A DNA stretch of 30,695 nucleotides from Clostridia bacterium (GTDB taxonomy: Bacteria > Bacillota > Clostridia > Oscillospirales > CAG-272): NCBI GenBank assembly GCA_017556845.1, contig JAFYMA010000147.1:1-30695 (forward strand), read 5' to 3'. A program made the position numbers and the translations under genes. Under the pieces are notes generated by a model, which did no database searches, was not told the DNA's origin, and saw only the letters and a list, made by a program, of their open reading frames with translations. This document shows positions 2,485 through 30,695 of the stretch, in pieces (the stretch's first letter is position 1; every line of letters begins with the position of its first letter).

Positions 2485-2520
2485 TTTTCTCTCCTATATT
2501 CTTTTCTGTATATTGGCATT

Positions 2521-4026
2521 TTATCCGTTATTTTTTTCAAATGATCTGAAATATACCCTGTTTATTTTTGCAAAGTATTCCTTATCTATACGCGAAAGCT
2601 GTTCTGAGGTGAAGCGTGGACGCCAATTTCCCTCTGCAATACCGGGACAATTCATTCTCGTATCGCCGCCGTAGCCGCACATATCCTGCACGGGAATTAC
2701 GACAAGACCTGCACATGATGACCAGATAGTTTCGATAATGGCTCTGCACGAGGGGGAATACTCTCCGCCCTGTCCCCAGTCGCCGTAGAACTTACAGTAT
2801 TCCAAAGCCTGCTCTCTGCTTGAAGGATCGGTATCATAAAGCCAGCCCAGAAGCGTATTATTATCGTGTGTCCCCGTATATACTACGCAGTTTTCCGTGT
2901 AATTGTGCGGCAGATGCACGCTGTCGTCGCCGCCGAAGGCAAACTGAATGACTCTCATTCCGGCAAAGCCCGTGCTTTTCAGAAGCCTTACGACGTCCTT
3001 ACCGAACACGCCGAGATCCTCTGCAATTATCGACGGGGAATCTATCTGTTCATTTACCGCCTTGAAGAGCTTCATACCGGGGCCCTTCATCCACTTGCCG
3101 TTACGTGCCGTTTCCTCGTCAGCTTTGACCGCCCAGAAGGAAGCGATTCCTCTGAAATGGTCTATTCGCACCGTATCGTACAGCTTAAGGCTGTGCTTTA
3201 TACGGTCTATCCACCACTGAAATCCGTTTTTCTCCATCTCAGCCCAGTCAAATAAGGGATTTCCCCAGAGCTGACCGTCCTCGGAAAACGCATCGGGCGG
3301 AACGCCTGCCACGAGATTCGGTCTGTAAGTATCGGGGTCTATCAAAAACAGATCCGTATGCGCCCATACGTCAGCGGAATCAAGTCCTACATATATCGGC
3401 ATATCTCCGATTATATTTACCTTTTTTTCATTTATCTTCTTTTTGAGCGCAAACCATTGCTTTGTGAATATATACTGGCAAAATCCGTGGAAAAGTATAC
3501 CGTCGGCAAATTCTTTTTTGTGCTTGAGCGCTTTTTTGTAGTTACGGAACTCCTCATCCCACTCGTAAAACGGCTTGTTATCAAAATGCTCCTTCAATGC
3601 TTTGTAGTAAGCATAGTTGAACGCTTCCCTATCCTTAAGAAACCTCTCAACGTCCTTTTTGCATTTATCGGTTATGGAAGCATATGCAGCTTTCAGCAGG
3701 TGCGTTACTGCCTGCATTGCAAAGCCGTAATCGACCGAATACGGTGAGCCGTTGTAAATACACGCCTGAACGTCCTGCTCGGTAACGTAGCCCTCCTCCA
3801 TCAGCGCCAACGGGTCAATATACATGATATTTCCCGAAAACGCACCGTCCGACGAATACGGGCTTTCACCCGCACCAACGGTATTCAGCGGAAGTATCTG
3901 CCATTCGGAAAAGCCCATTTTCTTTATGGATGCAGCAAATTCTTCTGCCTCTTTTCCGAACACGCCTATTGCAAACGGCGACGGCAAAGACGAAATATTC
4001 ATCAGTACGCCGCTTCTTCTTTCCAT
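2521..4026 (-). CDS. malQ: 4-alpha-glucanotransferase (amylomaltase, GH77)
   Basis: RRSGVLMNISSLP N-terminus, ESPYSS, GDMPIYV, GVPPDAFSEDGQLWGNP, RIDHFRG, IIAEDLG, YTGTHDNNT, RMNCPG. Confidence 0.97.
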   Translation of the reverse strand: MERRSGVLMNISSLPSPFAIGVFGKEAEEFAASIKKMGFSEWQILPLNTVGAGESPYSSDGAFSGNIMYIDPLALMEEGYVTEQDVQACIYNGSPYSVDYGFAMQAVTHLLKAAYASITDKCKKDVERFLKDREAFNYAYYKALKEHFDNKPFYEWDEEFRNYKKALKHKKEFADGILFHGFCQYIFTKQWFALKKKINEKKVNIIGDMPIYVGLDSADVWAHTDLFLIDPDTYRPNLVAGVPPDAFSEDGQLWGNPLFDWAEMEKNGFQWWIDRIKHSLKLYDTVRIDHFRGIASFWAVKADEETARNGKWMKGPGMKLFKAVNEQIDSPSIIAEDLGVFGKDVVRLLKSTGFAGMRVIQFAFGGDDSVHLPHNYTENCVVYTGTHDNNTLLGWLYDTDPSSREQALEYCKFYGDWGQGGEYSPSCRAIIETIWSSCAGLVVIPVQDMCGYGGDTRMNCPGIAEGNWRPRFTSEQLSRIDKEYFAKINRVYFRSFEKNNG

Positions 4027-16973: not shown

Positions 16974-17309
16974 ATGCCAAGAAGTTACCAACATATCAAG
17001 AAATATGAGTCTGAAATAGTCAAGCTGAAGGAACAAGGATATACAAAACGAGAAATTGCAGAAAAGTTGGGATTTAGTAAAGAACAAATAAAAGGATTAC
17101 TAAAAAGAAAGAGAAAAAGAGAAGAAAAACAAGCTTATGGAATCATGCCGAAGAAAAGAGGTAGACCCACAAAAGATTATGTTGTAAGCGAACAAACAAA
17201 AGTTGCCGAACTAAAATATATTCTTGCTCGTAAAGAGGCCAAGATAAAGAGTTTGGAGATGGAGAATGAACTGATGCGGGATTTTCTCTCTCTCACAGAA
17301 AGGAAGTGA
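16974..17309 (+). CDS. IS3-family transposase OrfA (HTH)
   Basis: GYTKREIAEKLG HTH, KKRGRP, C-terminal coiled coil ENELMRDFL. Confidence 0.9.
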   Translation: MPRSYQHIKKYESEIVKLKEQGYTKREIAEKLGFSKEQIKGLLKRKRKREEKQAYGIMPKKRGRPTKDYVVSEQTKVAELKYILARKEAKIKSLEMENELMRDFLSLTERK

Positions 17310-18160
17310 GAACAAGCGTAAAATATATGGTAATCTATCGTCACAAAGATAAATATTCAATTAGTGAGATGTGCCAGTTCTTCGAGGTGTCGAGAAGTGG
17401 CTACTATGACTATGTCAAAAGAATGACTAAACCTGCATGGTATCTGCCTCTTGCCAACAAGATCAAAGAATGCCCGGACAAATGCGGAAAAACCTACGGT
17501 TATCGCCGCGTGCATATATGGCTTGAGCGCAACGGCATACATAAGAATCCCAAAACAATATTGCGAGTTATGCAAAAGTACAACTTGTTATCGGTAATCA
17601 GAAGACGCAGATTCTACAAACATACCGAGCATCTTCATAAATACCAAAATCTTTGGAAACAGAATTTCCAAGCAGATCGACCTAATCAAAAATGGGCAAC
17701 GGATATTTCGTACATACACACAAAGCAAGGTGTGCTATATCTTTCTATCATTCGAGATTTGTATGACGATAGCATTGTGGCATACAACACCGGGACTCAA
17801 CAGACGGTTAATCTTGTATTAGATACAATAAAAGCAGCTAAAAGAAAAGAGAAGGTCACTGCAGAGTTGCAGCTCCACAGTGACCAAGGCTTTCAATATA
17901 CTTCCCATGCATATTTCAAGCTTACTCAATCATACAACATTACACCGTCAATGTCAAGTAGAGGTAATCCTTATGACAATGCTATGGCAGAAAACTTCTT
18001 CTCAATTCTCAAAACCGAATGTATTTATCGTACAAAGTTGAAAACCTATGAGGAGGCGCGCCTCCTCATAGGCGAATACATACGTTTTTATAACAATGAA
18101 CGTATCCAAATAAAAACAAAACTGACTCCGCTTGAAAAACGAAGTCAGTATGTCGTCTAA
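17306..18160 (+). CDS. IS3-family transposase OrfB (DDE integrase core)
   Basis: YGYRRV, WATDISY (D), HSDQGFQY (D), DNAMAENFF (E), YNNER. In the -1 frame relative to orfA, with a GTGA overlap. Confidence 0.93.
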   Translation: MRTSVKYMVIYRHKDKYSISEMCQFFEVSRSGYYDYVKRMTKPAWYLPLANKIKECPDKCGKTYGYRRVHIWLERNGIHKNPKTILRVMQKYNLLSVIRRRRFYKHTEHLHKYQNLWKQNFQADRPNQKWATDISYIHTKQGVLYLSIIRDLYDDSIVAYNTGTQQTVNLVLDTIKAAKRKEKVTAELQLHSDQGFQYTSHAYFKLTQSYNITPSMSSRGNPYDNAMAENFFSILKTECIYRTKLKTYEEARLLIGEYIRFYNNERIQIKTKLTPLEKRSQYVV

Positions 18161-22529: not shown

Positions 22530-24326
22530 ATGTGCGGAATCATCGGATACACGGGCAAAGATCAGGCTTTACAAATAGTTATGCGCGGACTTGCTGCATT
22601 GGAGTACAGAGGGTACGATTCATGCGGCTTGTCCGCTTTTTCTTCTGACGGTGATGAAATAACGGTCATAAAAAAAGCAGGACGGCTGAAAGTGCTTTCC
22701 GAGGCACTCAGCACCGTACAGTTAAACACCCGATGCGCCATAGGCCATACCCGCTGGGCGACACACGGAGCGGTAACGGAAGAAAACGCCCATCCCCACA
22801 GAGTCGGCAAAACGGTCATAGTCCACAACGGCATAATAGAAAATTACAAGCAGATAGAAAGCGAATTGCAATGCTCATTTCAAGGCTCGACCGACACTGA
22901 ACGGGCTTGCGCTTTGATCGACCGCTATTACGAGCAGACACACGACGGAAAGCAGGCTATAATCAACGCCTGCTCACAGATCGAAGGCTCATACGCCTTT
23001 CTCATTATGTTTGAGGACGAAAAAGATACTATCTATGCAACGTCACGTGCGTGTCCTCTTATCGTTGGACACGGCGAAAACGGCTCTTGCGCCATCTCCG
23101 ATATATCTGCGTGCAGGCTTGATACTTACTGCCGGCTGAATGACGGTGAATCAGCGCGTTTGACTCCCGACGGAATATCAGTTTACGCTTCTGACGGGCA
23201 TGAGCTTAAAGGCAGACTTTTACCGACGGACGTAAAGACGGAATTGCCAAGCAAAAACGGATATCCGCATTTTATGCTGAAGGAAATAAATGAAATACCG
23301 ACGGTGCTCAGAAAAACGGTCGATGCAAATACAAAGGACGGTCTGCCTTTTTTCAAATCAATACCCGACAGCGTTTTAAAGGATATGAAGAGACTTACCG
23401 TTATCGGATGCGGTACGGCATATCACGCAGGTCTTTGCGCCGTTCACACAGCAAGAGAGCTATCCGGAATTGACGGGGCGGCGTATATTGCATCTGAATA
23501 CAGATACTCACGTCCGACGGTGAAAAAGGGCGATGTCGTCGTCTTCATATCTCAATCGGGAGAAACCGCTGATACGCTGGCGTGCATAAGAATGTGCCGA
23601 TCGCTCGGTGCGTATACGCTTGGAATAATCAATGTTCCGTATTCTACAGCATCGTTTGAATGTGACGGAGTGATATACACGCACGCAGGATTTGAAATAG
23701 CCGTAGCAAGCACGAAGGCATACGTTTGCCAGCTTGCCGCTTTATATCTGCTTATATTCAAGGCGTCTCTTTTACAAAATGCACTATCCGAAAAAAAGGT
23801 AAGTGAATATACGAAAATACTCAAAAATGACGTACCCGAGAACGCTTATATCGACGAGGAAAAACGCAAGACCGTATACAATATTGCAAAAAAGCATAAG
23901 GATTCTGAAAATATGTTTTATATAGGCAGAGGCATTGACAGTATTCTGTGCAGCGAGGCATCGCTCAAGCTGAAAGAGGTATCGTATATCCACAGTGAAG
24001 CGTATCCCGCGGGCGAATTGAAGCACGGGGCGATCTCGCTTATAACTCCCGACGTTTCAGTATTCGTTATAGCGACCGACAAAAAGCTGATCGGAAAGAC
24101 CGAAAACAATATGCAGGAGGTCTCGTCAAGAGGCGGCAGACTGATACTGCTCGGCGACAGCGAGATGAAGAGCTGTGACATAATTCCGTGCAATTCTTTA
24201 CAAGGCATCTTTTCACCGTTTGCCGCATCTCCGCTTTTCCAGTTATATGCATATTACACAGCTTTACTGCGCGGATGTGACCCCGATATGCCGAGAAACC
24301 TTGCAAAATCCGTAACAGTTGAATAA
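22530..24326 (+). CDS. glmS: Glutamine-fructose-6-phosphate transaminase
   Basis: MCGIIG, GHTRWATHG, HNGIIENY, SQSGETADT, VASTKAY, GELKHG, PRNLAKSVTVE. Confidence 0.97.
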   Translation: MCGIIGYTGKDQALQIVMRGLAALEYRGYDSCGLSAFSSDGDEITVIKKAGRLKVLSEALSTVQLNTRCAIGHTRWATHGAVTEENAHPHRVGKTVIVHNGIIENYKQIESELQCSFQGSTDTERACALIDRYYEQTHDGKQAIINACSQIEGSYAFLIMFEDEKDTIYATSRACPLIVGHGENGSCAISDISACRLDTYCRLNDGESARLTPDGISVYASDGHELKGRLLPTDVKTELPSKNGYPHFMLKEINEIPTVLRKTVDANTKDGLPFFKSIPDSVLKDMKRLTVIGCGTAYHAGLCAVHTARELSGIDGAAYIASEYRYSRPTVKKGDVVVFISQSGETADTLACIRMCRSLGAYTLGIINVPYSTASFECDGVIYTHAGFEIAVASTKAYVCQLAALYLLIFKASLLQNALSEKKVSEYTKILKNDVPENAYIDEEKRKTVYNIAKKHKDSENMFYIGRGIDSILCSEASLKLKEVSYIHSEAYPAGELKHGAISLITPDVSVFVIATDKKLIGKTENNMQEVSSRGGRLILLGDSEMKSCDIIPCNSLQGIFSPFAASPLFQLYAYYTALLRGCDPDMPRNLAKSVTVE

Positions 24327-24332
24327 AAATAC

Positions 24333-24368
24333 AAAAAAGGACCGACAGAGGATATCCTCTATCGGTCC
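24333..24368. terminator. Terminator hairpin between convergent glmS and the surface-protein gene
   Basis: GGACCGACAGAGG-ATAT-CCTCTATCGGTCC (12 of 13 bp). The A6 run upstream gives a U-tract on the minus strand. Confidence 0.8.
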
Positions 24369-24398
24369 CTTGCATTAAATACCCGATTTGAAATTCAA

Positions 24399-25172
24399 TT
24401 ATTTCTTGGACTTCTTAACGAGAACTACAGCAACTACTGCCGCTACAGCAACTACTGCTATTATAATGATTATGGGAAAAACGGGGCTGCTCTTGCCGTC
24501 GTCTGCCTTGTCATCACTGTTCGTTGCAGCGGGAGCCTTTGTGGAGGCGTCCGTTGAAGCGTTTGTTGCAGGCGCATTTGTTGCAGGAGCGTTCGTTGCA
24601 GGAGCGTTTGTAGCAGGTGCTTCGGTTGTAGCATTTGTTGCAGGAGCGTTCGTCGCAGGTGCTTCGGTTGCAACGTCTGTTGCAGGAGCGTTATCGCCAC
24701 CCTCTGTCTTTTCAACGAAAGTTACGCCGCTTATGGAAATACCGTGATTTGAAAGTCCGCTTACAATATAAACAAGACCGCTGTAATCACTGCTGATCTC
24801 GATCTCGCTTTCTCTGATAGCCTGACCCCAGAAGCCGTAGGGAACTGAGGGCTGGAAGCTGCCTATTTTATTTCCTTCTGCATCCTGAAGAAAAACGTTA
24901 TCACTGATATCATAGTATGCAGAAGGATCGCTACCGTAGTATACGATAACCTTGGAATAATCAGCAAGATTAAGATCGCCAAGGCAAGCCTTCGGAGCGT
25001 CGCTGTTAAGGAAGTTGATAGTAACTCCGTCAAATTGTGCACCCTCATGTACAAAAACGCATCCGTTTGTGAAATCCGTAATTGAAGAAATGTCTACCTC
25101 GTAGTCAGCGGCAAAAACGCCTAATGTAAAGACCATCATAAGAGCGATGGTAAGTGCGAAAAACTTTTTCAT
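24399..25172 (-). CDS. Secreted, membrane-anchored protein with a CBM-like beta-sandwich, Thr/Ala/Pro repeat stalk and C-terminal TM
   Basis: Signal peptide MKKFFALTIALMMVFTLGVFA after a GGAGG RBS; ATNAP repeats; TM IIIIIAVVAVAAVVAVVLV followed by KKSKK. Confidence 0.8.
   Translation of the reverse strand: MKKFFALTIALMMVFTLGVFAADYEVDISSITDFTNGCVFVHEGAQFDGVTINFLNSDAPKACLGDLNLADYSKVIVYYGSDPSAYYDISDNVFLQDAEGNKIGSFQPSVPYGFWGQAIRESEIEISSDYSGLVYIVSGLSNHGISISGVTFVEKTEGGDNAPATDVATEAPATNAPATNATTEAPATNAPATNAPATNAPATNASTDASTKAPAATNSDDKADDGKSSPVFPIIIIIAVVAVAAVVAVVLVKKSKK
24559..24693 (-). repeat. Degenerate 15 bp tandem repeat encoding ATNAP/ATEAP
   Basis: About 8-9 degenerate units of GCAACAAATGCTCCT-like sequence, translating as PATNAPATNATTEAPATNAPATNAPATNAPATNA. 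Confidence 0.9.
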
Positions 25173-25203
25173 GTTTTTCCTCCTATAATTATTTGTTAAT
25201 TGA

Positions 25204-25232
25204 ATTATATCACACAACTTTATTGTTGTCAA
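25204..25232 (-). promoter_or_regulatory. Perfect consensus sigma-A promoter of the repeat-stalk surface protein
   Basis: TTGACA-17 bp-TATAAT with extended -10 TG. Confidence 0.9.
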
Positions 25233-25265
25233 TAGAATTTTTCACCGTTCTGCTCATTGCATCCG

Positions 25266-27185
25266 TTAGTAACAGACGTATTTTATGAGAAGAGATTCTC
25301 TTTTGTTCGGTATTTTAAGCTGTATACCGTTTTGCGCAAGCTCTTTTCCCGAAAATATAAAGCTTTCGTTTGTATCGGCATTTATAAATTCATACGTTTT
25401 GCTTTCATCAATTCCGCCGAGCATAACGTCTGCCGCGGCAAACGGGCATTCTTCTCTGCGGAAGGCAAGTATTATACCGCTGCTCGTTTCAGGCTCGTCG
25501 TATTGCGATGCCGCCCAAGATACAGTTTCCTTTGAGTTTTTTATCAAAGGATAGAAATCGCAAGTAAAATAGTGCTGAACGGACAAATACTCATTGAAAT
25601 ACTTTCTCGCCCAATCGAACGGCTCGTTCGTCGCTCCGACCTCCCACTCAAAATCGGCATGCTCCCACGTACGAACAGTCATTCCGGGTGAGTAAGCACT
25701 TCTGAAGCTGTACGTATCACCGAGCGTAGGGCCGTATCCTACGCCTGAATAAGGATACCACCACGCATTTCCTATCGTCTGAAGCTGATAGCCCTCAGGA
25801 GCGTTATCCCATATACTGCAATAATCGCTTCTCCAAAGCGTTATAGACCTTGCAAGCGCTTCTATGTCAAGTCGGTGTCCGCCGCCTGCACAGTTGTCGA
25901 TAAGCAGATACGGGAACCTTTCAAGAAGTGTGTCCCAGAATCTGTAAAGGTTGTTTATGTATCTTATCTCATTTACACCGTCACGGTCATTTTCGTCGTT
26001 CAATCTCCAGAACGGGATTGGACCTATGTTGAAATCCTGTCTGTAAAGCGTTATGCCGAGCCTTTGTATAAGCTCGCTGACCTTTTCTATCAAAGCTTCC
26101 GCGACCTCATCCTTATGCAAAGCGATTATGACGTTTTTATCATTGGGATCGTGCATCGGCTTCATATATTCAGTCCACGGCTCTACGTTCAGATTGATCC
26201 TTTCAGGCTCAAACCAAAGCTGGAATTTTATATTCTTTTCCTTAAGCCATTGCACAGCGTCCGAAAGGCCGCCCGGATGATAAAGCTTGCTCACCTGCCA
26301 CGTTCCGACGGTGCCCCATTCTGCCGACTGCTCTGCACACGTTTTGCCCTTCATAGGCTCATACCATCCGGCATCCATCCAGCAATAATTGAACGGAAGA
26401 GCTTCCTTGAAGATACCCTGCCACCGCCTTTTTAAAGCATCGGTGGAAATTCCGCCCCAGAATATCGCAGAAAACGGGCATTCCTTATCACGCTGCTGCT
26501 TTCCGACGGGAGAAACACAGTCCTTTATGTATCTTCTCCACATATTGTGAGCGTTGTCCTGACCGTTGTCGTATTCAAGGACAGTTACAGATGACGTTCT
26601 GAATTTTTCGCCCGGCTTCATGTAAAATCGGACGCCCTCTATACGAGAAAGAAGCCTTACGTCCTTTTCTCCGCGCTCAAACTGAGCATTCCACTGGCCC
26701 GTCCAACCTATCGCCATGAGAACGCCCTTTTCCCGTCTGTTAAGATCAAAAAACGGTGACGTTCCCATTCCGCTTCTGCCCGAATGATTGGCTGCCTTCA
26801 GCGTTTCATTCGGCCAAAAGCGTGTGGCGTACGCCATATTATCGTAATCGGTGATGTTCGCTCCGTCTGTAATATAGAGCTTCAGCGTGTCAGTCGTCCA
26901 CACGGAATGCTTGTTTTTTCTGTTTTTCGCAGGATCTGCATCAAATTCAGCCGTAGTATCGCAGTCCCACAGATCTGATACTATACCGCTGTTACGGTCG
27001 GTATCATTGTACCAGTAATTCGTCCATTTTATTACGTTGTACTTTAGAAATCTTTCTATACGGCATTCTATGCACAAGCCGTCAGACAGAGTATATTTTA
27101 TTCCTTTTTCGGTTTCAACGATCGTTTTTTCAAGCTCCTCAAACGGAACGCCGTTATATTTAAAAGAAAAACCGGGATTTATCAT
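25266..27185 (-). CDS. Alpha-galactosidase (GH36)
   Basis: CWMDAGWY, LWFEPER, YRQDFN (nucleophile), IDNCAGGGHRLD, WRSD (acid/base). No signal peptide. Confidence 0.88.
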   Translation of the reverse strand: MINPGFSFKYNGVPFEELEKTIVETEKGIKYTLSDGLCIECRIERFLKYNVIKWTNYWYNDTDRNSGIVSDLWDCDTTAEFDADPAKNRKNKHSVWTTDTLKLYITDGANITDYDNMAYATRFWPNETLKAANHSGRSGMGTSPFFDLNRREKGVLMAIGWTGQWNAQFERGEKDVRLLSRIEGVRFYMKPGEKFRTSSVTVLEYDNGQDNAHNMWRRYIKDCVSPVGKQQRDKECPFSAIFWGGISTDALKRRWQGIFKEALPFNYCWMDAGWYEPMKGKTCAEQSAEWGTVGTWQVSKLYHPGGLSDAVQWLKEKNIKFQLWFEPERINLNVEPWTEYMKPMHDPNDKNVIIALHKDEVAEALIEKVSELIQRLGITLYRQDFNIGPIPFWRLNDENDRDGVNEIRYINNLYRFWDTLLERFPYLLIDNCAGGGHRLDIEALARSITLWRSDYCSIWDNAPEGYQLQTIGNAWWYPYSGVGYGPTLGDTYSFRSAYSPGMTVRTWEHADFEWEVGATNEPFDWARKYFNEYLSVQHYFTCDFYPLIKNSKETVSWAASQYDEPETSSGIILAFRREECPFAAADVMLGGIDESKTYEFINADTNESFIFSGKELAQNGIQLKIPNKRESLLIKYVCY

Positions 27186-28438
27186 ATTTCCTCCGCAACA
27201 TTATATTTTTGCATTTTTTCATTTTGAAGTGAAACACTCTGATCGTTTTTATAATATTTATTCACAAGGCTCACATAGCCCTGCTCTTTCATGTCGCCGT
27301 ATCTGAATTCAAACCGTGATTTATTACGTTTTCCCGTGGCTATATATCTTATACAGTCCTGCATATACAGATCTATCTGATGCAAGGAGCGATCTGTGCT
27401 TATCACGGGAAAAAACCACCTCGTCCACGTCAGCTCGTTCGATCTTGGATTATCGAAAAGCTTTCGGTTGAAGCACCGTATAAATACACGGCAGGCTTTT
27501 ATTCTGTCTACGTTGTTTTTGTCTGCCCAGCGGCACAGCGCCCTGCTTTTACGGCGCATCTTCCGTTTCAGTTTTTCCACGGATGCTCTGCAAATATCAA
27601 TTTCGCCGTTATTGTACGAAAAGCCCAAAAACGTCCATTCGGTATACGGCTGTGATACAGATTCCTTTTTTGAATTTATCTTAAGTCCCTTTTCATCCAA
27701 AACGCTTTTTATGTAGGAAATGCACGCTTCAAGCTCGTTTTCATTTTTTGCAAAAACGATAATATCGTCAGAATACCGTGCATACGGTATACCTCTGTCA
27801 AAAAAATATGCATCAAGCTCACTCAGATAAAGATCGGCAAGAAAGCCCGACACGGGAACACCCGCCATTATTCCTCTTTTCTGATATGTAGGCTCGTCGT
27901 TGTATAAAGCGTAGGGATATTCAAGAACGGAACGCAAAAACGAATAAAGGGCAGGATCGTTTGCCAAAGCGTTTTCAAGCATCGGCAACAGCTTTTCAAT
28001 GTCAACGGAATTGAAATAATCGCTGATGTCAAGCTTATACGCATAGTATCCGCTTATGCCGTCGAGCTTCAGAATATCGTTTATGGCATTTTTCACACCG
28101 TTGTTTTTTCTGAATGAATAAAGGTTGGGCGAAAAAATGCCGTCATACTCCGAAAGCATATACGCTATCAGCTTCAATACGTAGTTTTCTTCACGGCGGT
28201 AAACGTATACGGTACGCTTTTTATCCGTATTTGACTTGTTGAGAAGAACCTTTTGCGGTGGTGAAAAACAGCCGTTATTCAATATATCGTCCGCTATCGG
28301 AAGATATTCGCCGTTTTCAATGAATGTAAATAGATCGCCTCTTTCATCTATTGAAAGATTTCCGCACCTTTCTTTATGCTCAAAAAACGCAAGCCATTCT
28401 TCTTTATTTTTCAAACGCTCAAGTATACTGATGTGCAT
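27182..28438 (-). CDS. Stand-alone group II-like reverse transcriptase (YSDD), not within an intron
   Basis: RT1 PQKVLLNKSNTDKKRTV, RT2 FSPNLYSFR, RT3 KLDISDYFNSVD, RT4 GIMAGVPVSGFLADLYL, RT5 YARYSDD, RT6 GLKINSKK, RT7 FLGF, then a thumb-like C-terminal region with no endonuclease domain. GGAG RBS. Confidence 0.92.
   Translation of the reverse strand: MHISILERLKNKEEWLAFFEHKERCGNLSIDERGDLFTFIENGEYLPIADDILNNGCFSPPQKVLLNKSNTDKKRTVYVYRREENYVLKLIAYMLSEYDGIFSPNLYSFRKNNGVKNAINDILKLDGISGYYAYKLDISDYFNSVDIEKLLPMLENALANDPALYSFLRSVLEYPYALYNDEPTYQKRGIMAGVPVSGFLADLYLSELDAYFFDRGIPYARYSDDIIVFAKNENELEACISYIKSVLDEKGLKINSKKESVSQPYTEWTFLGFSYNNGEIDICRASVEKLKRKMRRKSRALCRWADKNNVDRIKACRVFIRCFNRKLFDNPRSNELTWTRWFFPVISTDRSLHQIDLYMQDCIRYIATGKRNKSRFEFRYGDMKEQGYVSLVNKYYKNDQSVSLQNEKMQKYNVAEEI
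27200..27228 (-). promoter_or_regulatory. Candidate promoter for the alpha-galactosidase, embedded in the RT 3' tail
   Basis: TTCAAA-17 bp-TATAAT directly before a GGAGG RBS; the resulting leader would be very short. Confidence 0.45.
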
Positions 28439-28452
28439 AAACGCTCCAAAAT

Positions 28453-28590
28453 AAAAAGACAGAGAGAAAATGCTTTAACAGCATAATTTTATGCTACTAA
28501 ACCGTACACGGACAAGCTACCTGCAAAGCTGTATGCAGTCCGTGCTTTGTTCACCGCAGGTGCAATAATGCGTTTCTCTCTGTTTTAAGC
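28453..28590 (-). ncRNA. Putative RT-associated structured non-coding RNA
   Basis: An 11 bp perfect IR (28459-28469 / 28573-28583) encloses three hairpins: CACC/GGTG, GCACGGAC/GTCCGTGT and AGCATA/TATGCT. It fills the gap directly upstream of the RT. Expression is not shown. Confidence 0.6.
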
Positions 28591-28603
28591 TGTTTTGACG
28601 TAT

Positions 28604-29056
28604 TTACAGATTTTCCTTTATTCTGTTCAATACGTAATTCTTTTCGTTTTCCCAACCGATATAAAATCTCATATACGGTATATTCTGCTCGTCAAGAATC
28701 GTATACGTGCCGACGGCGGGCATCGTCGTACGCTGATTTACACGCATTATCATAACTGCAAGGACGGGTGATCCATCCTTTTTGAACAGAAAAGTGATAG
28801 GAAAGCATTTCGGGTGGGCGTTACTGTCAAATCTGGACAGCATCACGTTTTGCTCTATACTGTATCCGGGAAAATTATCCTCGGTAAGCAAGGATGCGAA
28901 ATACTGAACGTTTGCGTTCGGGTTCGTGTCAACGAATTTTTTGAATTTAACGCTCTGCTCCTGCATTACAGGCTCTTTTTGTTCAGGCGTTTTCTGTGTG
29001 TTACCATCGGATGACGGCGAAAGCACCGCCTTAAGCAATTTATCTAAAAATCCCAT
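28604..29056 (-). CDS. Hypothetical 150 aa protein; C-terminal domain resembles a degenerate PD-(D/E)xK/DUF2726-like fold
   Basis: AAGGAG RBS before MGFLDKLL; IEQNV...PITFLF...PVLAVMI...IPYMRF pattern. The ORF is well supported; the fold call is tentative. Confidence 0.6.
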   Translation of the reverse strand: MGFLDKLLKAVLSPSSDGNTQKTPEQKEPVMQEQSVKFKKFVDTNPNANVQYFASLLTEDNFPGYSIEQNVMLSRFDSNAHPKCFPITFLFKKDGSPVLAVMIMRVNQRTTMPAVGTYTILDEQNIPYMRFYIGWENEKNYVLNRIKENL

Positions 29057-29080
29057 AAGTATCAACTCCTTTACAATTGA

Positions 29081-29109
29081 ATTTTATCACACAAAGTAAA
29101 AAAAGTCAA
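29081..29109 (-). promoter_or_regulatory. sigma-A promoter upstream of the hypothetical-ncRNA-RT unit
   Basis: TTGACT-17 bp-TAAAAT with extended -10 TG. Confidence 0.82.
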
Positions 29110-29164
29110 TAGCAAACGGCTATGAGCACACATTGACGCAATGCGGTATTAAAAAGCGGATCCG

Positions 29165-29710
29165 TCAGGATTCAAGATGCCTTGATAAGAAATTGCAGGC
29201 GGACAGAGTGAGCTTCAGCTCAACGTCGCTGCAGGCAGGATCGCTTTCTGAATCCTTGGCTATAATACATACACAGCCCGATACGTCGCCGCCCGAAATT
29301 ATCGGCGATGCACATACTATATGATAGCGGCTGTCGGGGCAGATATACAGCTTGGCACTTTCCCCATTGAACGCAAACGTCTTGCGTTTTTCCATAAGCT
29401 CCTCAAGCTCTCGGCTGATCTTTCTGTCCGAAAGCTCCTTTTTCGAAGCTCCCGCCAAAGCTACTATCTCGTCACGGTCACAAACGGCAATGCAAAGCCC
29501 CGATGCCTTGTTTATCGACTCAACGCAGTCGGTGGCAAAGCCGCTGAGCTGTGCCATATGCGAATACTTTTTAAAAATGACCTCACCGTCTTTATCGGTA
29601 AATATTTCAAGCGGCTCTCCCTCTCTTATTCTGAGAGTGCGGCGTATCTCCTTAGGAATGACCACCCGCCCCAAATCGTCGATTCTTCTCACAATACCTG
29701 TTGCTTTCAT
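29165..29710 (-). CDS. spoVT: Stage V sporulation protein T (AbrB-type DNA-binding domain plus GAF-like domain)
   Basis: MKATGIVRRIDDLGRVVIPKEIRRTLRIREGEPLEIF, C-terminal PIISGGDVSGCV and FLSRHLE. AGGAG RBS before ATG at 29710. Confidence 0.93.
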   Translation of the reverse strand: MKATGIVRRIDDLGRVVIPKEIRRTLRIREGEPLEIFTDKDGEVIFKKYSHMAQLSGFATDCVESINKASGLCIAVCDRDEIVALAGASKKELSDRKISRELEELMEKRKTFAFNGESAKLYICPDSRYHIVCASPIISGGDVSGCVCIIAKDSESDPACSDVELKLTLSACNFLSRHLES

Positions 29711-29793
29711 ATATACATTTCTCCTTAAATTACAAATTGTGTTGTTAGTATTTGTCAGCAAAGAAAAATTATACTGCTTTTAAAAAACGTTTA

Positions 29794-29822
29794 TTGACTT
29801 TTTTATCTACATATGATATTAT
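29794..29822 (+). promoter_or_regulatory. sigma-A promoter, divergent from spoVT
   Basis: TTGACT-17 bp-TATTAT with extended -10 TG. Confidence 0.75.
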
Positions 29823-29900
29823 TGAAGGGATGTTGCAGGTTGAGTAGGAAAGCAATATTTATAGCTGAACTTGTTTCTAAAATGATAGGAAGAAAGAAAA

Positions 29901-30272
29901 ATAGCAAAAAATACCATCCAATACGTTGAACCAAATATCTCAGATTTAGTAAATGGTTGGCTCAAATCATATAAAGTAGATTATAAGTTAGAGCAAGAAT
30001 CTTTGAACACGGAAATAGATCAGGCTCTCAATGACTATTTTTCTAAAAATGGCGGTAATCGTCCCGATACCAAACTGATTTTGAAAGCCAATGACGGCAA
30101 GGATTATCCCGTTCTTATTGAGTATAAAGGGTATAAAGATAAGCTCCTCGTTAAACTGGATGATGAGGGGAACGTTGCTAACAAAACTTCAAAGAATCAG
30201 CCCGACTTTGCTAACATCAACTCTTATGCAGTAAACGGTGCTGTTCATTATGCAAACGCTGTATTACATTAT
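29901..30272 (+). pseudogene. 5' fragment of a BcgI-like/type IIG restriction-modification enzyme (N-terminal nuclease domain)
   Basis: The frame reads (ATA)AKNTIQYVEPNISDLVNGWLKSY...EQESLN.EID.AL...NRPD...LIEYKG...YAVNGAVHYANAVLHY. There is an in-frame TAG at 29886 and no ATG, so the start appears mutated to ATA. Similarity stops abruptly at ~30272. Confidence 0.75.
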
Positions 30273-30369
30273 TATTACTCAGTATGTTCAGTTCCTCAGA
30301 ACTAACATTGAGCAGGGTTATTTCGATACTGAAACTCAGAACATCGGCCTTGCTGACGCTTTTAAATAA
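30268..30369 (+). pseudogene. Possible orphan 3' end of an unrelated gene
   Basis: A different frame reads IIITQYVQFLRTNIEQGYFDTETQNIGLADAFK* with biased codons (ACT, AAC, TTC, GCT), followed by a strong hairpin. It has no start of its own. Confidence 0.4.
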
Positions 30370-30383
30370 GAACAATTGGCAAA

Positions 30384-30418
30384 ATCGGGAGCCGTCGATG
30401 CTCTCGACGGTTCCCGAT
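30384..30418. terminator. 15 bp GC-rich hairpin (terminator or stabiliser)
   Basis: ATCGGGAGCCGTCGA-TGCTC-TCGACGGTTCCCGAT with one G-U pair. The U-tract is weak on + and short on -. Confidence 0.6.
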
Positions 30419-30487
30419 GAATTGCCCACTAACTTTAAAAAATGTTCCGAAATATGGATTTATATATTGATTACGGGAGTAGGAAAA

Positions 30488-30695
30488 ATGAAAAGAATTA
30501 TATTTCTTGTGATGATTACTTTGCTTGTTGTGGGGGCGTGCGGCTGTATGCGAGGTAGAACGAACCCTGGAACCGTTGATGAAAAAGATAAGACAGCAGA
30601 AGACTACCTAATAACTAAGTATGGTAGTGAGTTTTCTTTTTTATCAAATGGTGATGATGTTTGGTCATCGAAATCTAAAAGCTTGATTTTTTCAG
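30488..30695 (+). CDS. Putative lipoprotein, truncated by the window edge
   Basis: Manual translation: MKRIIFLVMITLLVVGACGCMRGRTNPGTVDEKDKTAEDYLITKYGSEF... with lipobox-like GACGC and a GGAG/AGGA RBS; open to the end of the window. Confidence 0.75.
   Translation, partial: MKRIIFLVMITLLVVGACGCMRGRTNPGTVDEKDKTAEDYLITKYGSEFSFLSNGDDVWSSKSKSLIFS

Follow-up and report, generated by a model that had tools for sequence, protein, structure and literature searches.

A UG26-group reverse transcriptase encoded with a structured RT-5 RNA and a small Vsr-fold protein in a Clostridia genome

The gene at positions 27182..28438 (minus strand) of the 30,695-nucleotide stretch of Clostridia bacterium DNA analysed here (contig JAFYMA010000147.1 of assembly GCA_017556845.1, positions 1 to 30,695; hereafter the window) encodes a reverse transcriptase (RT) of 418 amino acids (aa), which an earlier note on this DNA had singled out for atypical active-site motifs. 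Judged by its profile matches, this RT belongs to UG26, a Class 2 group of the UG/Abi prokaryotic RTs, and lies in a cassette of about 2 kb composed, in this order, of a small gene, an RNA and the RT. The cassette is an ordinary member of this catalogued, functionally unstudied group, so that family membership accounts for the apparently anomalous motifs, and the RT gene is not an orphan. By analogy with characterised relatives we consider it probable that the UG26 RT, its RT-5 RNA and a nuclease-dead Vsr-fold protein constitute an RT-RNA system that makes DNA templated by its own RNA.

The RT, read from an ATG start, matched the PADLOC profile RT_UG26 with an E-value of 8.6e-164 (543 bits, residues 4-399 against profile positions 2-396 of 398), followed by the profiles of UG27 (7e-35, 119 bits) and UG17/DRT10 (5e-32). 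The matches to other classes were far poorer: the NCBIfam model for group II RTs and maturases (TIGR04416) gave 108 bits against a cut-off of 300, the retron RT model (NF038233) 63 bits against a cut-off of 235, and the similarity to the DRT2 profile and to G2L4 was weak (for the latter 51 bits by profile and 23 bits with a single sequence). The catalytic loop of G2L4 reportedly reads YIDD, instead of the YSDD present here. The motif 4 signature GxxxSQ, which the earlier note gave for diversity-generating retroelements (DGRs), is not found either, as the RT reads G-V-P-V-S-G, with Gly after Ser. Pfam recognised RVT_1 alone (4.7e-24), and the lack of any fused known domain agrees with the description of Class 2 by Mestre et al. 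2022 (PMC9226505), the study in which UG26 was defined from 35 members. The earlier note had named as evidence against itself a confident assignment to a characterised class for which such motifs are typical; the assignment to UG26 is confident and the motifs are typical of it, but the class is catalogued and not functionally characterised, which leaves that objection half standing.

An AlphaFold2 (AF2) model obtained from a family alignment (pLDDT 87.4) consists of a single RT body, with only the last ~15 residues disordered. In whole-chain comparisons with Foldseek the closest solved chains were the group II RT GsI-IIC (TM 0.68), G2L4 (0.65), DRT9 (0.63) and DRT2 (0.52); no solved structure of a UG26 member exists. 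The protein is laid out as an N-terminal helical extension, fingers, palm and thumb-like C-terminal helices, and residues ~400-418 form a tail without conservation that runs into the downstream gene. D137, together with Y141-F142, aligns to the D..FF of group II RTs, and K74-R75, D224-D225 and an LGF primer grip are also present. As far as can be read from its sequence, the RT is thus intact and catalytically competent, every catalytic residue being kept. The unusual residues reported earlier are real: motif 4 (B; 27824..27874, minus strand) reads GIMAGVPVSGFLADLYL, in which A192 stands opposite the Gln of P-Q-G in profile alignments to the group II RT GsI-IIC and the retron Ec86 RT, so that this Gln is truly replaced, and the catalytic loop of motif 5 (C; 27764..27775, minus strand) is YSDD in the translation.

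Both features extend well beyond this copy. Among 35 relatives with 51-69% identity, the motif 4 residues G189, G193, P195, F199, A201, Y204 and L205 were invariant, as was the whole Y-x-R-Y-S-D-D stretch (including Y222, S223, D224 and D225), and A192 was conserved in at least 90%. A wider sample was drawn from a library clustered at 50% identity, in which 252 clusters were related to UG26 at an E-value of 1e-30 or better. It comprised 40 UG26 representatives, 26-49% identical to the RT of the window, and its eight most divergent members were still UG26 by profile. At the Gln position these representatives carry Ala (25), Pro (10), Ser (2), Leu, Cys or Glu (one each) and never Gln; G193 and D224 are invariant and D225 is found in 39 of 40, and the variable residue of YxDD is Ser in 23, Ala in 13, Thr in two, and Cys and Phe in one each. 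Profiles assign two phage RTs to UG27 (E 1e-212 and 1e-228); both retain QG and have a YSDD loop. Since Gln was never observed in the 40 representatives and QG is kept in UG27, the alignments identify the family-wide loss of the motif 4 Gln, mostly to Ala or Pro, as a hallmark of UG26; by the same alignments YSDD or YADD is the UG26 norm, with YSDD common to the sister group UG27. Leu stands at this position in 8bgj, the solved RT domain with the best score, so that the position varies in other unconventional RTs too. In HIV-1 RT the corresponding motif 4 Gln, Q151, touches the sugar of the incoming dNTP, and on this analogy the loss of Gln plausibly changes nucleotide affinity or selection in UG26.

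The 165 nt between the RT and the upstream open reading frame (ORF; 28439-28603) hold an RNA gene, and RT-5 is universal among the related loci that have sequence upstream of the RT. The structured non-coding RNA, delimited by Rfam and a covariance model at 28451..28596 (minus strand), consists of the RT-5 core, a closing stem of 12 bp with the arms ACAGAGAGAAA and UUUCUCUCUGU, a pseudoknot and a U-run after the 3' arm, the last of these being found in most loci. The Rfam core (RF03026; 28466-28565, minus strand) was matched over all 104 model positions with 82.3 bits, against a gathering score of 45.7, and stops 27 nt ahead of the RT start; in the window it is bracketed by a perfect 11-nt inverted repeat. 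The Rfam model contains the same pseudoknot but omits the covarying closing stem, which brings the element described here to ~146 nt. RT-5 belongs to the motifs RT-1 to RT-19, described near RT genes by Weinberg et al. 2017 (PMC5737381), whose guess at their function was retrons or DGRs.

A covariance model (R1) was built from 20 loci including the flanks of the RT-5 core and run on 80 related loci. It matched all 76 loci having sequence upstream of the RT and scored 144.5 bits in the window. In the 59 distinct RNA sequences used for the covariation statistics, 97% of the cells were paired and 31 of the 37 pairs showed compensatory changes, a result equalled by none of 500 shuffles, and slid controls were only 38-47% paired. 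All twelve pairs of the closing stem covary, and the pseudoknot, formed between a 5' GCRCCUGY and the loop GCAGGY, is paired at 100% and includes three pairs that covary. The minimum free energy is -48.9 kcal/mol (z = -4.5).

Several peculiarities of the RNA were recorded in addition. In 54 of 58 distinct RNAs the 5' arm of the closing stem leads directly into two GC dinucleotides separated by 3-8 nt rich in U and A (window 28567-28579; columns 26-48 of alignment A4). This invariant GC-N-GC may be a template bounded by a stem, a branch-G context like that of retrons, or a 2-bp mini-helix. An A-B-A' template of the DRT10 kind was considered for it and found no support, as the flanks of the GC-N3-8-GC match at chance level (9 and 12 of 58), with nothing beyond 2 nt. 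In several loci (L005, L007, L013 and L048) the ATG of the RT abuts the U-run of the RNA and a Shine-Dalgarno sequence is absent. One locus from a metagenome-assembled genome (MAG) of Bacteroidaceae (L077, JAFQEZ010000093.1) contains two RT-5 copies (2315-2460 and 3850-3999) and, at 2486-3844, an ORF of 452 aa upstream with up to three tandem small-protein domains, a mini-array that recalls the RNA arrays of UG27.

The third part of the cassette is the 150-aa protein encoded at 28604..29056 (minus strand), whose likely start is the ATG at 29056, with AGGAG 9 nt upstream. It was detected by the PADLOC profile RTasCOG2852 (E 2.3e-7) and by its AF2 fold. Its conserved N-terminal MGxFDKLxK is followed by a disordered linker and a C-terminal Vsr/DUF559-like domain of the PD-(D/E)XK type, modelled by AF2 as an alpha/beta domain with pLDDT >90 for residues 46-150. 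The fold matches (VIA-align) were led by 3hrl (DUF559; Z 9.4, root-mean-square deviation 2.3 A over 86 residues), followed by the catalytic domain of I-Bth0305I (Z 8.9) and E. coli Vsr (1cw0; Z 8.1). The invariant residues are F53, F62, L99, V101, Y128, N137, Y141, R145 and L150, and the conserved polar ones Y128, R130, N137, Y141 and R145; among 27-44 aligned members no Asp, Glu, His or Lys is invariant, and the protein is therefore very probably not a nuclease, despite its endonuclease-type fold. The Vsr/DUF559 endonucleases share this fold, but differ in that the small protein has the conserved N-terminal segment and the disordered linker and does not conserve their catalytic acidic and His residues. 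A scan of 27 homologues against Pfam, DUF559 included, returned no family, and the 896 members found in a large database are all unnamed and without a Pfam domain. The MGxFDKLxK segment (window 29021-29056, the first 12 codons) is kept throughout the family, including its most divergent clade, with low AF2 confidence; it is similar to amphipathic helices that bind membranes, the N-terminus of Vipp1/PspA being one example.

In ~60 of 76 loci (~79%) the gene that immediately precedes the RT, and shares its strand, encodes a relative of the small protein, with a steady gap of 144-206 nt in most of them that leaves room for the RNA. Starting from the protein instead, three of three divergent homologues (25-32% identity) were found 170-250 nt upstream of an RVT_1 gene of ~405 aa. 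The small protein is thus a dedicated partner of the RT, the link holding from both sides. A prediction of the complex of the two proteins scored 0.00, which gives no verdict either way. In four other loci (L051, L053, L063 and L075) the Vsr-fold protein is absent and a 226-aa protein with SAP and DUF6434 domains is encoded between RNA and RT; in L051, for example, the RNA lies at 3216-3362, the ORF at 3284-3964, overlapping the 3' part of the RNA match, and the RT starts at 3992. The accessory slot of the UG26 cassette is therefore exchangeable.

With these results the surroundings of the RT can be restated. The stop of the RT overlaps by 4 nt the start of a GH36/melibiase-like gene (25266-27185), an overlap that is not kept in a 95%-identical relative (G010), which has a gap of ~25 nt and a shorter RT C-terminus. 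In 24000-30695 Rfam recognised RT-5 alone, and no group II intron RNA. The description of the RT as free-standing and unrelated to an intron, with 165 nt upstream and an overlapping next gene, was hence correct. The further statement that it has "no endonuclease or intron context" holds for the missing intron RNA and for the RT chain, which carries no endonuclease, but fails for the spacer, which is filled by RT-5, and for the upstream gene, whose product has an endonuclease fold.

About 25 nt upstream of the small gene there is a promoter-like site (29081..29109, minus strand; TTGACT, a spacer of 17 nt, TAAAAT, and TG before the -10), with 10 of 12 consensus matches; judged by this consensus match alone, it is probably the promoter of the cassette. 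The host genome is a 1.66-Mb MAG, 74% complete, with one RT copy. The RT was present in six of ten genomes of the genus, eight of 36 genomes of the family and one of 24 other sampled families of the order, and UG26 relatives were found in at least 447 species-level genomes. Gene order is unchanged in a 95%-identical relative. In two congeners without the RT, spoVT directly adjoins a mucin-like gene, and for this reason the small gene, RNA, RT and GH36 gene can be regarded as an inserted block; in the window this block (25266-29109, compared with L091-L094) sits between the same two genes. In a third congener the cassette is located elsewhere and an 86%-identical GH36 gene lies upstream rather than downstream. 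The GH36 gene and the cassette thus travel together with their order permuted. Across 74 loci no conserved neighbour, and with it no third conserved gene, was detected beyond close relatives, and the similarity of distant loci does not extend past the cassette borders (between L015 and L025 it begins ~120 nt upstream of the small gene). Searches of phage and plasmid collections did not find UG26: the phages yielded UG27 alone, at 24-28% identity, and the plasmids group II RTs at ~25% among the records listed.

Some further features of the surroundings were noted. An IS3-family transposase (HTH_21 and rve; window 17306-18160) is encoded 9 kb from the cassette, in the kilobase of lowest GC content (0.38). 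At 24399-25232 the window encodes a surface-type protein of 277 aa, with a signal or transmembrane start, Thr/Ala/Pro repeats of the APATN type and a C-terminal transmembrane segment, of which two side-by-side paralogues occur in relatives without the RT block. Three of the 18 loci scanned with Rfam (L041 3053-3244, L056 5493-5567 and L061 5271-5352) have transfer RNA genes no more than 1-1.5 kb away from the cassette, a proximity that may be due to chance or hint at insertion hot spots.

According to a recent study (10.1101/2025.10.16.682844), the Class 2 UG RTs examined so far each reverse-transcribe a dedicated non-coding RNA. Because these characterised relatives copy their own RNA, the UG26 RT can be expected to copy a defined part of RT-5. 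In the mechanism that we consider probable, the RT would bind the RNA made just upstream of its gene and use part of it as template, leading to a defined DNA product, and the small protein would assist as accessory factor or cofactor, or would read this product. The weakest step concerns the biological role: a part in conflict with phages or other mobile DNA is the one that we favour, although we put it at slightly less than even odds. More speculatively, the cassette might encode a distinct, undescribed DNA-writing particle, in which the Gln loss would retune nucleotide selection or affinity (e.g. to a dependence on dNTP levels), the RNA would supply a short template next to the closing stem, which would serve as its boundary, and the nuclease-dead Vsr-fold protein, with its amphipathic N-terminal segment, would read the product; this version is rather unlikely. 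Its role might not be classical phage defence, given that the surroundings of the cassette in gut and rumen Clostridia are core metabolic genes and apparently not defence islands.

A number of observations weigh against an RT-RNA system of this kind or against a role in conflict with mobile DNA. No template was identified within the RT-5 RNA, the GC-N3-8-GC being without extended homology, and none of the C-terminal Tyr or Ser residues, one of which might act as priming residue, is strictly invariant in the 40 UG26 representatives (Y380 is conserved in at least 90%, Y388 in 35 and Y395 in 32 of the 40). The small protein is missing from about 20% of the loci, where its place upstream is taken by unrelated housekeeping genes. 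The genes of the window are themselves housekeeping genes (glmM, glmS, spoVT, rluD and lnt), and 144 non-redundant flanking proteins from the loci were nearly all metabolic, with one type II restriction-modification pair, two TIR_2 proteins and few others. In the region of the UG27 phage RNA array, neither the RT-5 covariance model run with filters off nor Rfam at E <=1 gave anything credible, and the hidden Markov model of the small protein detected no homologue in the UG27 locus; the parallel between UG26 and UG27 is one of architecture, and homology of their partners is not demonstrated. Literature searches on UG26, the RT-5 RNA, RF03026 and DRT11-13 retrieved no functional study and no experiment on any UG26 member; templating by RT-5 is proposed by analogy.

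Of the other ways to read the same cassette, an arrangement like that of retrons would account for much of the RNA: the closing stem would correspond to a1/a2, the invariant G 3' of the 5' arm would offer its 2'-OH as primer, the RT would copy the 3' half of the RNA into a short branched RNA-DNA hybrid (multicopy single-stranded DNA, msDNA), and the small protein would be the effector. The order of RNA and RT with an accessory gene, the covarying 12-bp terminal inverted repeat that closes the RNA, the GC located 2-3 nt past the 5' arm in 54 of 58 sequences and the Ec86 RT as best single-sequence match in the PDB (palm region) are all in line with it, as is the speculation by Weinberg et al. 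2017 (PMC5737381), in which many of the RT motifs work in retrons. Yet the protein scores 543 bits as UG26 and stays far below the retron cut-off, the pseudoknotted interior is unlike msr/msd, and no Class 2 UG RT studied primes from RNA, DRT9 and DRT10 being protein-primed, which makes such a retron-like element improbable. Little probability is likewise given to the RNA being a cis-acting leader (an attenuator or terminator) for the expression of an RT that works on other templates or without template, like Class 1 Abi or DRT4-type enzymes. The closing stem and U-run right before the RT start, abutted by the ATG in the several loci that lack a Shine-Dalgarno sequence, would suit a leader, and the Gln loss could suit unusual nucleotide handling; but a terminator would require neither the strictly conserved pseudoknot nor the invariant single-stranded nucleotides, the 226-aa gene inserted between RNA and RT in four loci shows that the RNA does not lead into the RT everywhere, the RNA occurs twice in one locus, and untemplated synthesis is a Class 1 trait.

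The earlier note itself had proposed a domesticated group II-like RT engaged in DNA repair like G2L4, possibly with altered fidelity. The resemblance to GsI-IIC RT and G2L4 in the AF2 model and the housekeeping neighbours, with no defence island apparent, can be cited for it, but the resemblance comes down to the general RT fold (TM 0.65 for G2L4), the group II RT/maturase and G2L4 scores are low, and an obligate dedicated RNA and a partner are not features of G2L4. Both the obligate RNA and a patchy distribution speak against housekeeping repair, presence in only part of one genus being ill-suited to core repair, and we regard this proposal as very unlikely. More doubtful still is a selfish retroelement, multiplying by reverse-transcribing its own transcript. 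The patchy distribution, the varied flanks, the similarity that ends exactly at the cassette borders between distant loci and the GH36 gene that flanks the cassette on one side in one genome and on the other side in another would fit, but there is one copy per genome, no integrase or active endonuclease, no terminal repeat was seen and no copy was found in the sequenced phages or plasmids. Finally, gene synthesis of the DRT2 type, in which a rolling-circle concatemer of the RNA interior would encode a stop-free effector, could be entertained for an RT of the same class with a stem-closed RNA as in DRT2. The concatenated interiors between the stem arms, however, are stop-free in only 8 of 58 RNAs in sense and 5 of 58 in antisense orientation, and not for the window, and the DRT2 profile match is weak; this is the least probable of all. 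The templated RT-RNA system thus remains our preferred explanation.

Each Class 2 UG/Abi RT studied has shown an unexpected form of DNA synthesis, be it gene synthesis, homopolymers, telomerase-like repeats or hairpin complementary DNAs (cDNAs), and UG26 is one of the remaining unstudied groups of this class, common and compact with its three parts in ~2 kb. The natural replacement of a dNTP-contacting Gln also makes it a ready-made case for how this residue shapes RT chemistry. New here are the finding that the motif 4 Gln is lost throughout the family but kept in UG27, the presence of the RNA in every locus with upstream sequence, a pairing of partner and RT that holds whichever of the two is taken as starting point, the very probable lack of nuclease activity in the partner, the apparent absence of a defence-island or mobile-element context, and the recognition of the system in the UG27 preprint as nearest analogue.

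UG27 is indeed the nearest characterised analogue of UG26. The UG27 systems of gut phages are reported, from experiments, to make hairpin cDNAs of 50-100 nt from their own RNA and to need both of their accessory proteins; the RT has YSDD, and the RNA units of ~150 nt have a basal hairpin and a pseudoknot (preprint 10.64898/2026.09.22.753630). The two are sister RT groups, each being the second-best profile of the other, with the YSDD loop in common, and RT-5 resembles the UG27 RNA as a unit of ~150 nt with basal hairpin and pseudoknot. UG27 differs in the QG of motif 4, in its arrays of diverse RNA units, in its two unrelated accessory proteins and in being phage-borne, whereas RT-5 is usually single-copy and chromosomal.

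DRT10 (UG17), DRT9 (UG28) and DRT2 (UG2) belong to the same class and likewise combine an RT with a dedicated non-coding RNA template; DRT10 has a protein as third part, as in the UG26 cassette, and DRT9 reaches TM 0.63 to the UG26 RT. DRT2 produces rolling-circle concatemers, DRT9 poly-dA from a U tract, and DRT10 telomerase-like repeats by means of an A-B-A' template, an upstream boundary stem and priming from C-terminal Ser/Tyr; DRT9 and DRT10 are both protein-primed and untemplated synthesis is a trait of Class 1 (10.1101/2025.10.16.682844). All three differ from the cassette of the window in profile matches far weaker than that of UG26, in partners that are SLATT proteins or missing, and in their location in defence islands. 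The group II RT GsI-IIC and G2L4, the best whole-chain structural matches, have the same order of motifs, but UG26 has neither an intron RNA nor a maturase-level score, its Gln is replaced and it possesses a dedicated small RNA.

The closest correspondence is with UG26 as described by Mestre et al. 2022 (PMC9226505), with the same full-length profile, no fused domain and an adjacent COG2852/Vsr-like gene. In that study a gene for a COG2852 "very-short-patch-repair endonuclease" was found beside 9 of the 35 members, the prediction of a defence function was inconclusive and no RNA was reported for UG26. Nothing fundamental sets the present copy apart from those members, apart from its non-conserved C-terminal tail running into the next gene. 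Compared with that description, the RNA proves universal and the partner far commoner (~79% of loci versus 9 of 35 members).

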